In this document: one piece after another, positions 14,880 through 15,753 of the stretch
Layout of the letters: the number at the start of each line of letters is the position of its first letter
How positions within the stretch are numbered: position 1 is the first letter of the stretch
Sequence record: PP925834.1
Origin: Escherichia phage MiataMamis
DNA length: 64,000 nucleotides
Direction: 5' to 3' (one strand)
The notes under the pieces: generated by a model
Databases searched by the model: none
Seen by the model: only the letters and a program-made list of their open reading frames with translations
What the model was told of the DNA's origin: nothing
Program-made: the position numbers and the translations under genes

Positions 14880-15338
14880 TCAACACTTTTTGTACTCTAC
14901 TACAACCACATCAATATCTGTGGTTGCAAGATTAATTACATCTTCTACATGTTCCCACTTTAGACCGCCAATACCGCATCCAATTTTAGGAATGTAGAAC
15001 GGCAATGACACACCTTTGAATACCTCGTTGACTCGCTCAAAACCTTTCATTATTGAGAAGTATTCAGCATTGGGCCCTGGGTAGAACTGGGTATACAGGT
15101 TGATTCCATATACGACCCTGTTCTTGGCAAAATGCTCCCAACAAGAAAACATACCCAGCTTGTCCAGATTACCATAGGCAGTCTCTTTGTCGGCTGCCAG
15201 TGCTTGAGGGAACTCACGGGCAATATCTTTCGCTATGCCTGCACCCATTGTATGAAAGCAGTTACAACCGTGGATCAGGTGACCAGCACCGCTCTTAAAA
15301 AGGGAGATTAAATCTCCCGCTACAGTATCAATAATCAC
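14880..15338 (-). CDS. macro-domain protein (ADP-ribose binding or hydrolysing)
   Basis: Macro-domain-like pattern GDL...HGCNC...MGAGIAKDIA and glycine-rich loop PKIGCGIGG; start overlaps the stop of the upstream gene. Confidence 0.7.
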   Translation of the reverse strand: MIIDTVAGDLISLFKSGAGHLIHGCNCFHTMGAGIAKDIAREFPQALAADKETAYGNLDKLGMFSCWEHFAKNRVVYGINLYTQFYPGPNAEYFSIMKGFERVNEVFKGVSLPFYIPKIGCGIGGLKWEHVEDVINLATTDIDVVVVEYKKC

Positions 15339-15753
15339 GGTATGTCAGCTCCTCTTCCGCAATTTCAAAAAACTCATCCCAACCTTGTGGCATATTTGAG
15401 TTGCCGAAGTGGCTTTCATAGTAAAGGTTCTCACCACTTGGGAGATAGAAATCTGTTACCTCGTAGAATCCACAATCGTCGCACTCGCCTTCTTCAAACT
15501 TGGCCTCAACCTTAATACCTAGGAAGGTGAAAAGTTTATGGATATCTTCAGTTTCGAACTCCCAGCAGATATTGTTTTCCGCATCGGTGTAGAACTGGAT
15601 CAGCAGACCATTATCCAGTTTACCAAAATATTCTGTGAAGTAACTCCCTTCCCAGAAATCTTTATGACAAATAATATCCATGCGCTTGCCCATGATAAAG
15701 GTGTGGGCGTTTTGGGCATCGTCACGAATCAGTTTTGGCATTTCATAGATCAT
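15328..15753 (-). CDS. hypothetical protein (141 aa), translationally coupled to the macro-domain gene
   Basis: ORF-track ORF; 11-nt overlap with the downstream gene. Confidence 0.65.
   Translation of the reverse strand: MIYEMPKLIRDDAQNAHTFIMGKRMDIICHKDFWEGSYFTEYFGKLDNGLLIQFYTDAENNICWEFETEDIHKLFTFLGIKVEAKFEEGECDDCGFYEVTDFYLPSGENLYYESHFGNSNMPQGWDEFFEIAEEELTYRDY

Follow-up and report, generated by a model that had tools for sequence, protein, structure and literature searches.

A Gln-type macrodomain of the Tk.4/AdfM family in Escherichia phage MiataMamis, its overlapping 141-residue neighbour, and a probable role against DarT2-type DNA ADP-ribosylation

The sequence analysed here (hereafter, the window) is a stretch of 64,000 nucleotides (nt) from Escherichia phage MiataMamis (PP925834.1). 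It contains a small gene encoding a macrodomain protein (the macro gene), whose start overlaps the end of a gene encoding a protein of 141 amino acids (aa) (Table 1). This arrangement raises two questions, namely, what the macro protein does for the phage and whether the two overlapping genes act together. The answer that we favour with moderate confidence is that the macro gene encodes an enzyme of the Tk.4/AdfM family, most likely reversing the adenosine diphosphate (ADP)-ribosylation of DNA by DarT2-type toxins early in infection, and that the 141-aa gene is a separate accessory gene.

The open reading frame (ORF) at 14880-15338 had been described as a macrodomain gene by its motifs, and all of them (GDL, HGCNC, MGAGIAKDIA, and PKIGCGIGG) were found in the translation. 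The protein matches the Pfam Macro family (PF01661) with 25.9 bits and an expectation value (E) of 1e-5, above the gathering threshold of 22, and phrog_335 with E = 1.4e-59. In the NCBIfam and PADLOC scans, DarG models were the sole matches; the score against the DarG equivalog NF048014 (47.3 bits) is far under its cut-off of 250, and positions 4-144 of the 338 in this model are covered. AlphaFold2, run with 49 homologues, gave a model with a predicted local distance difference test (pLDDT) score of 92.6 and a predicted template modelling (pTM) score of 0.88 that displays the three-layer alpha/beta/alpha macro fold. A Foldseek search of the PDB with this model yielded 147 matches at E <= 0.001; the 50 listed ones comprise natural macrodomains and macro-like structures (designed hydrolases, structural-genomics proteins), with template modelling (TM) scores of 0.69-0.75 for the best of the natural ones. 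The top fold matches are TARG1, the DarG proteins of Thermus aquaticus and M. tuberculosis, Poa1p, BT1257, and SCO6735; a profile of the macro family run against PDB sequences retrieved the same relatives (TARG1, E = 3e-14). Coronavirus and alphavirus macrodomains rank below the TARG1/DarG/Poa1p/SCO6735 set (E about 1e-4 to 1e-5). Comparison of a predicted structure with DarG-type folds had been proposed in the preliminary description, and its outcome agrees with the motifs, all top matches being macrodomains. Judging by sequence and model, the macro assignment is confident and lies far beyond chance, and the protein can be placed in the ALC1-like class (TARG1, DarG, SCO6735, Poa1p) and not in the MacroD, PARG, or viral nsP3 class. 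Its 152 aa comprise the macrodomain only, with no DarT-binding C-terminal domain, and no toxin gene was found among the surrounding genes examined, which encode small phage proteins.

The macro gene starts with a GTG codon. That this start overlaps the stop of the 141-aa gene had been reported previously and was confirmed, with 11 nt shared. The identical overlap is annotated in rV5, HdK5, A6-1, and MaxBurger. The codon equivalent to the GTG is an ATG in RB49 and in L009, a 139-kb viral contig (ATGATTATTG...), and full-length alignments with the Tk.4 proteins of RB49 and T4 begin at residue 1; together, these observations corroborate the position of the start. The 3 kb around the pair are 96-98% identical to many genomes of Vequintavirus (rV5-like) E. 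coli phages. The rV5 record labels gp204 "tk.4: phosphatase", with a remark on its similarity to RB49 Tk.4, and gp205 as hypothetical; labels in further GenBank records are "macro domain protein", "Poa1p-like family protein", and phosphatase. The macro gene is thus already annotated in many GenBank records, which the preliminary description had not recognised.

Conservation was scored across 49 homologues of the macro protein. Residues G24, N26, C27, M31, G34, A36, D50, N80, Y82, Q84, P117, G120, and G122 are invariant, and H23, G32, A33, T83, and G125 are close to invariant. In the family-profile alignment, T83-Q84 falls on T83-K84 of TARG1 (motif LITKK), of which K84 is the catalytic lysine, and G124 is located at the position of TARG1 D125. 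In pairwise alignments, the NLYTQF motif lies on NFPTKK of DarG, and N80...Q84 lies on N-M-I-G-Q of SCO6735. Gln85 of SCO6735 occupies the position of DarG Lys80 and TARG1 Lys84, and the Q85A variant is inactive; SCO6735 itself clears DNA of the thymidine-linked ADP-ribose that DarT attaches and saves cells from this toxin, and the mechanism proposed for it is water-mediated and based on substrate positioning (PMC9411070). Because Q84 stands at the DarG/TARG1 lysine position and has its parallel in SCO6735 Gln85, the Tk.4-family phage proteins can be classified, on their aligned residues, as Gln-type ALC1-like macrodomains with an active site that is not of the DarG/TARG1 lysine type. The invariant Gln would tie the T4 Tk.4/AdfM clade mechanistically to SCO6735 and not to DarG, a link that we did not find stated in the literature examined.

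The function of the macro protein is suggested by its relatives. It is 69% identical to RB49 Tk.4 and 39% identical to T4 Tk.4, the latter over the full length (residues 1-150, E = 1e-43). When T4 was screened by HIDEN-SEQ on a host with DarTG2, tk.4 alone was depleted; T4 with tk.4 cleanly knocked out becomes sensitive to DarTG2, and the gene was renamed adfM (anti-DarT factor Macrodomain) (bioRxiv 10.1101/2025.11.20.689424). T4 without AdfA and AdfN remains DarTG2-resistant (PMC11825919). The preliminary description had proposed a role against ADP-ribosylating host defences, and this is the best-supported function, as judged from the need of T4 for its homologue against DarTG2. We propose the following scheme. 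The macro protein, a member of the phage Tk.4/AdfM family, would be an ADP-ribosyl-glycohydrolase made up of a stand-alone macrodomain, probably produced early in infection, since its gene lies in a block carrying sigma-70-type promoters. It would remove the ADP-ribose that a host DarT2-type toxin adds to thymidines of single-stranded phage DNA, and phage replication could thereby continue in DarTG2-carrying E. coli. The 141-aa gene would be a separate accessory gene of few lineages, and the 11-nt overlap would reflect compact packing within one genus. For the macro gene, we infer hydrolase activity, a DNA-thymidine substrate, an anti-DarTG2 role, and early expression from this combined analysis.

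Several points weigh against this interpretation. The transfer of function to the Vequintavirus protein rests on the 39% identity to T4 Tk.4, and the T4 evidence itself is purely genetic and comes from a preprint (bioRxiv 10.1101/2025.11.20.689424). In the available part of the HIDEN-SEQ comparison for phage Bas54 (the same as MaxBurger, equated by locus tags), which included no DarTG2 host, neither of the two genes was depleted (log2 change +0.42 and +0.52). The family keeps His23 and has Thr30 at the position of Poa1p Ser30; His23 and Ser30 are the residues mutated in deposited Poa1p structures. Since both His23 and Thr30 are kept, a small-molecule substrate, such as ADP-ribose-1''-phosphate (Appr-1''-p), is conceivable. 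Promiscuity is also common among macrodomains. Finally, the overlap of the two genes is strictly conserved within the genus, and A6-1 exchanged its two alleles jointly (dS, the synonymous divergence, is 1.30 and 1.03), so a genus-specific functional link between the genes is possible.

The strongest competitor concerns the substrate. The macrodomain might act on another ADP-ribose compound, namely, ADP-ribose-1''-phosphate, O-acetyl-ADP-ribose, ADP-ribosylated protein or RNA produced by other defence toxins, or an immune signal derived from nicotinamide adenine dinucleotide (NAD). We consider this unlikely. In its favour, SCO6735 and TARG1 also work on proteins (PMC9411070). Poa1p ranks high among the matches of the macro protein, in sequence as well as in fold, the two share the I-H-x-C-N-C motif (IHSCNC in Poa1p, IHGCNC in the phage) with its nearly invariant His23, and the GenBank labels "phosphatase" and "Poa1p-like" point in the same direction. 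However, we know of no phage role for Appr-1''-p phosphatase activity. Moreover, the DarTG2 sensitivity of T4 delta-tk.4 is the only known phenotype of the family (bioRxiv 10.1101/2025.11.20.689424), and SCO6735, which is of the Gln type, is highly active on thymidine-linked DNA ADP-ribose (PMC9411070).

The second question is whether the overlap marks a two-gene unit, as the preliminary description had suggested. Of the 25 adjacent same-strand gene pairs annotated over these 9 kb in rV5, 10 (40%) overlap, by 1-29 nt. The macro gene follows vs in both T4 and RB49. The RB49 homologue of the 141-aa gene (ORF064c) overlaps dam and is located 9 kb from tk.4. In L009, the macro gene is 79% identical, has an ATG start, and lies 19 nt after an unrelated 151-aa ORF, and the homologue of the 141-aa gene is found 1.4 kb downstream of it. 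In HdK5, the macro allele was exchanged (dS 1.04) and the 141-aa gene was not (dS 0.34), with the recombination breakpoint between them. Adjacency of the two genes was seen in Vequintavirus only and is not kept across independent lineages. With these rearrangements, neither the suggestion of a two-gene unit nor conservation of the pairing as a functional module is supported. Translational coupling is another matter: it is mechanically plausible given the weak GTG start, the overlapping stop, and the Shine-Dalgarno sequence at rather long spacing, and translation of the macro gene is probably coupled to that of the 141-aa gene. We read the overlap as a genus-specific packing feature and not as evidence for joint function.

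It could be objected that both genes work as an anti-defence pair, a kind of split DarG-like antitoxin, in which the acidic 141-aa protein would, for instance, bind and block an ADP-ribosyltransferase in the manner of the DarG C-terminal domain, AdfA, or AdfB. The 11-nt overlap with the weak GTG is kept across the genus, including A6-1 with its joint replacement of both alleles; the L009 homologue of the 141-aa gene is still less than 2 kb from the macro gene; and a natural deletion, described below, takes out both genes together. The 141-aa protein is very acidic (31 Asp/Glu of 141 residues, isoelectric point (pI) 4.2), and the DarG C-terminal domain has been described as a mimic of negatively charged single-stranded DNA (PMC11481870). 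However, the neighbouring genes encode proteins that are just as acidic (pI 4.3-4.4), and overlaps are as frequent in the region as stated above. In RB49, it is dam to which the 141-aa homologue is coupled, at a distance from tk.4, and HdK5 swapped its macro allele alone. The distributions also differ: tblastn detected the macro family in 2830 phage records but the 141-aa family in 176, all from Vequintavirus, where the identity exceeds 90%, or from Krischvirus/RB49-like phages, where it is about 37%. An exhaustive HMMER search with the 141-aa protein over 1.84 billion representatives gave 11 matches, one of them spurious. We therefore regard a functional pair as improbable and prefer to treat the 141-aa gene as a separate accessory gene.

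The 141-aa protein belongs to phrog_8157, a family without an assigned function. Its fold is confidently predicted and carries a conserved C-x-x-C...H motif (C91, C94, H115). The last 55 residues of the family contain the invariant motif G-x-C-D-x-C-G-x-Y-x-V-x-D...P-x-G...Y-x-E-x-H-F-G...N-x-P..W-x-E-F, which in its longer form reads G-x-C-D-x-C-G-x-Y-x-V-x-D...LPSG...Y-x-E-x-HFGN-x-N-x-P..W-x-EF. The family profile retrieved nothing from all PDB sequences, even at E <= 10, and the model had no match in BFVD at E <= 0.001, with TM-scores below 0.4. Pfam, NCBIfam, and PADLOC scans of this protein and of the other neighbours gave nothing informative except Phage_zn_bind_2 for a 64-aa protein. 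The idea that the 141-aa protein is an analogue of the DarG C-terminal domain in a split DarG found no support in the PDB profile and BFVD searches and was kept as a low-probability rival. In the same vein, it is very doubtful that the protein is a new anti-defence factor co-expressed with the macrodomain, e.g., a DarT-binding inhibitor standing in for that domain. The spurious HMMER match, P0132 (3189 aa), was rejected as a eukaryotic Cys-rich VWD/TIL/C8 protein. In one further protein, P0129, the N-terminal part of the HNH/endonuclease VII-like gene (window 16595-17305) is joined to the conserved C-terminal domain of the 141-aa family; it is a further deletion or recombination product of the same gene block.

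The least credible alternative, a non-catalytic ADP-ribose binder (reader or sponge) lacking the Lys and Asp of TARG1/DarG, would account for Gln84 in place of the catalytic Lys and Gly124 at the position of TARG1 Asp125, but SCO6735 shares the Gln, likewise lacks the Asp, and nevertheless hydrolyses its substrates very actively, with Gln85 being essential (PMC9411070); the invariance of Gln84, Asn26, and both loops within the family also suits an active site.

Table 1. Coordinates of the features discussed in the text (positions in the window).
Feature	Position	Strand	Evidence and remarks
Macrodomain gene, 152 aa, GTG start	14880..15338	minus	ORF list; rV5 gp204 'tk.4', bas54_0092; T4 Tk.4/AdfM family
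141-aa gene, ATG start	15328..15753	minus	ORF list; rV5 gp205, bas54_0091, phrog_8157
11-nt overlap GTGATTATTGA (coding strand)	15328..15338	minus	Macro GTG at 15338-15336 and TGA of the 141-aa gene at 15330-15328
GAGGAG Shine-Dalgarno-like sequence, inside the 141-aa ORF	15349..15354	minus	10 nt before the macro GTG; read from sequence
Asn26 codon, family-invariant	15261..15263	minus	Aligns with PhiKZ AdfM (gp104) Asn23
Gly32-Ala33-Gly34 codons, MGAGIA motif, first ADP-ribose-binding loop	15237..15245	minus	Conservation and family profile
Gln84 codon, invariant, N-L-Y-T-Q-F motif	15087..15089	minus	Position of TARG1 Lys84, DarG Lys80, SCO6735 Gln85
Pro117-Gly125 codons (PKIGCGIGG), diphosphate-binding loop	14964..14990	minus	Conservation and family profile
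10-nt direct repeat CCAGTTCTAC, first copy, in the macro gene	15081..15090	minus	Deletion junction
10-nt direct repeat CCAGTTCTAC, second copy, in the 141-aa gene	15589..15598	minus	Deletion junction
Hairpin GGGAGAU-UUA-AUCUCCC (7 bp) then UUUUU, macro codons 7-14	15297..15318	minus	Starts 10 nt past the stop of the 141-aa gene
Strong terminator-like hairpin, 9 pairs, 7 G-C	16558..16579	minus	Upstream of the gene block with the pair
Perfect sigma-70 consensus promoter TTGACA-16-TATAAT	14402..14429	minus	Downstream of the pair; rV5 promoter P205
64-aa basic zinc-binding protein (g64), Pfam Phage_zn_bind_2, CxxC...CxxC	14434..14628	minus	Two genes downstream of the macro gene

The ratio of nonsynonymous to synonymous divergence (dN/dS) of the macro and 141-aa genes is 0.06-0.22, which indicates purifying selection, and both genes are thus maintained as proteins. 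The divergent macro/141-aa alleles of HdK5 and A6-1 have dS of about 1.0-1.3; in the flanks, the values are 0.02-0.46, except for g110 (0.58 in HdK5). Most genes flanking the pair are 98-100% identical in protein to those of HdK5 and A6-1, and the pair is a local mosaic spot. Positive selection in an arms race was rejected as the cause of this divergence, given the low dN/dS and the high dS of the exchanged alleles. The pattern suggests that alleles were replaced by recombination while the genes stayed under purifying selection.

Both genes are accessory in character. Transposon insertions in Bas54 hit 31 of 31 TA sites in bas54_0092 (macro; 95% identical) and 21 of 23 in bas54_0091 (141-aa), and both genes were called non-essential. 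A natural Vequintavirus variant (Logan ERR11560567, 135.5-kb contig; L088 1501-1866) has a 508-nt in-frame deletion with intact flanking genes. After codon 55 of the 141-aa gene, the reading frame continues at macro codon 87, and the last 66 macro codons are left (protein P0017). Since P0017 fuses the start of the 141-aa protein to the end of the macro protein, this variant lacks both functional proteins. The repeat CCAGTTCTAC occurs exactly twice in the window, and the deletion runs between its copies. In another phage, vB_Eco_Alma (L004, about 2500-2920), a 1-base deletion in the T-run after the intragenic hairpin shifts the reading frame of the macro gene; the annotated product, 'Phi92_gp185', begins at an internal start. 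This frameshift can be explained either by a pseudogene or by a homopolymer sequencing error.

The transcriptional context is that of a block with sigma-70-type promoters, which suggests early expression by host RNA polymerase. Within the macro gene, codons 7-14 can form a hairpin followed by a U-run; it is terminator-like, and its significance is uncertain. Annotators placed a 'terminator' feature under the macro gene in Murica, NBG1, and fPS-2. A hairpin is located at the equivalent codons in the tk.4 genes of rV5 (L001), RB49 (L002), and T4 (L006). Compensatory changes can be noted among the tk.4 hairpins (GGA:UCC -> GGC:GCC; GAU.GUC -> GAC-GUC), and in T4-like tk.4 sequences, synonymous variation is restricted to the hairpin loop. 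In sequences with the peptide G-D-[IL]-[IV]-[AS]-L, the hairpin fold exceeds 94-100% of synonymous recodings in stability, with the exception of the weakened rV5, MaxBurger, and L009 variants. Across 11 sequences selected for having this peptide, 96% of the cells pair, and two-sided changes are observed in three of the seven pairs. The hairpin is absent in most of the distant macro homologues. Taken together, the evidence for a conserved hairpin in tk.4-type genes is suggestive only. The small RNA (sRNA) ArcZ contacts the tk.4 mRNA of T2 (2026 preprint). In tk.4-type genes of T4, RB49, and rV5-like phages, the hairpin and the U-run, which lie within the first 40 nt, could be a conserved regulatory element that controls enzyme dose, e.g., by intragenic attenuation or by the docking of Hfq or an sRNA.

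Among the other neighbours, the gene encoding the 64-aa zinc-binding protein is a better-conserved companion of the macro gene than the 141-aa gene. Its RB49 counterpart, ORF090c (L002 11857-12051), is 78% identical and directly follows RB49 tk.4 with an 11-nt overlap, and several T4-like loci have weaker homologues, located 1-1.7 kb past the macro gene on its downstream side. Homology of the 64-aa protein to T4 Tk.1, Tk.2, or Tk.3 was considered and rejected, as BLASTP gave no match. Further upstream lies a 423-aa gene (17190-18461, minus strand; phrog_4477) that encodes a low-complexity centre rich in Gln and Ala and overlaps the HNH endonuclease ORF (16595-17305, minus strand) around the start of the latter. 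Its Bas54 orthologue, bas54_0087, was called essential (8 of 57 TA sites hit), and the endonuclease is dispensable in Bas54. Sixteen unannotated 'Campylobacter phage' records (MG065646, MG065647, MG065655, and others; host C. jejuni) share 93-96% identity with rV5-like phages of E. coli across this region, and the C. jejuni host labels of these records look doubtful.

If the proposed role is correct, rV5-like phages carry an enzymatic antidote to DarTG2-type DNA ADP-ribosylation. This would help to predict their host range on DarTG-carrying strains, as rV5-like phages are much used in E. coli O157 biocontrol and phage therapy. The annotation of the macro gene was already known and the family function was recently published, so none of this will surprise specialists. 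The new elements are of modest value: the Gln-type site of Tk.4/AdfM, the separation of this clade from PhiKZ AdfM, a 141-aa neighbour with an orphan fold, and the conserved intragenic hairpin.

When comparing the macro protein with known systems, T4 Tk.4/AdfM is the reference for function. Both belong to phrog_335 and consist of a single macrodomain (155 aa in T4), and the motifs HGCNCFHTMG.G.A, NLYTQF.PGPN.EY, and P.IG.GIG are found in both. In T4 as here, the gene is a non-essential accessory gene among small, tightly packed genes on the same strand. However, T4 has vs upstream and an ATG start, whereas the window has the 141-aa gene upstream and a GTG start. In addition, protection against DarTG2 was demonstrated for T4 alone, and RB49 Tk.4 is much nearer to the macro protein.

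The macrodomains of DarG (T. aquaticus 5M31/5M3E, M. tuberculosis 5M3I) share the ALC1-like fold with the macro protein (TM-score about 0.73-0.75), and both have Gly, not Asp, in the second loop. DarG differs in possessing a C-terminal DarT-binding domain, reflected in the 338-position model, and the catalytic Lys80, whereas the phage protein has 152 aa and Gln84. SCO6735 of Streptomyces coelicolor (PDB 5E3B) is likewise a stand-alone ALC1-like macrodomain with Gln85 at the Lys position and no catalytic Asp, but its identity to the macro protein is about 23%, and it is encoded by a bacterial chromosomal gene tied to the DNA-damage response. Yeast Poa1p (PDB 6LFQ-6LFU), close to the phage protein in sequence, fold, and the shared His-Cys motif, is the origin of the 'phosphatase / Poa1p-like' annotation of phage macro genes. 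It is an ADP-ribose-1''-phosphate phosphatase and differs from the phage protein in being a eukaryotic enzyme of tRNA-splicing by-product metabolism with Ser30 instead of Thr30.

PhiKZ gp104, also named AdfM, is a phage stand-alone macrodomain countering DarTG2; it strips DarT2-made ADP-ribose from DNA in vitro, and mutation of its Asn23 lowers activity (Cell Reports 2026, PMC13309987). N23 aligns with N26 of the macro protein, and the GAG and G-x-G-G loops align too. However, the identity between the two proteins is 22% (E = 8e-5), and gp104 retains the DarG-type F-P-T-K motif with Lys. Because of this low identity and the Lys motif, T4 Tk.4 (Gln type) and PhiKZ gp104 (DarG-like Lys type), both called AdfM, are different macrodomain lineages, and their shared name invites annotation confusion.

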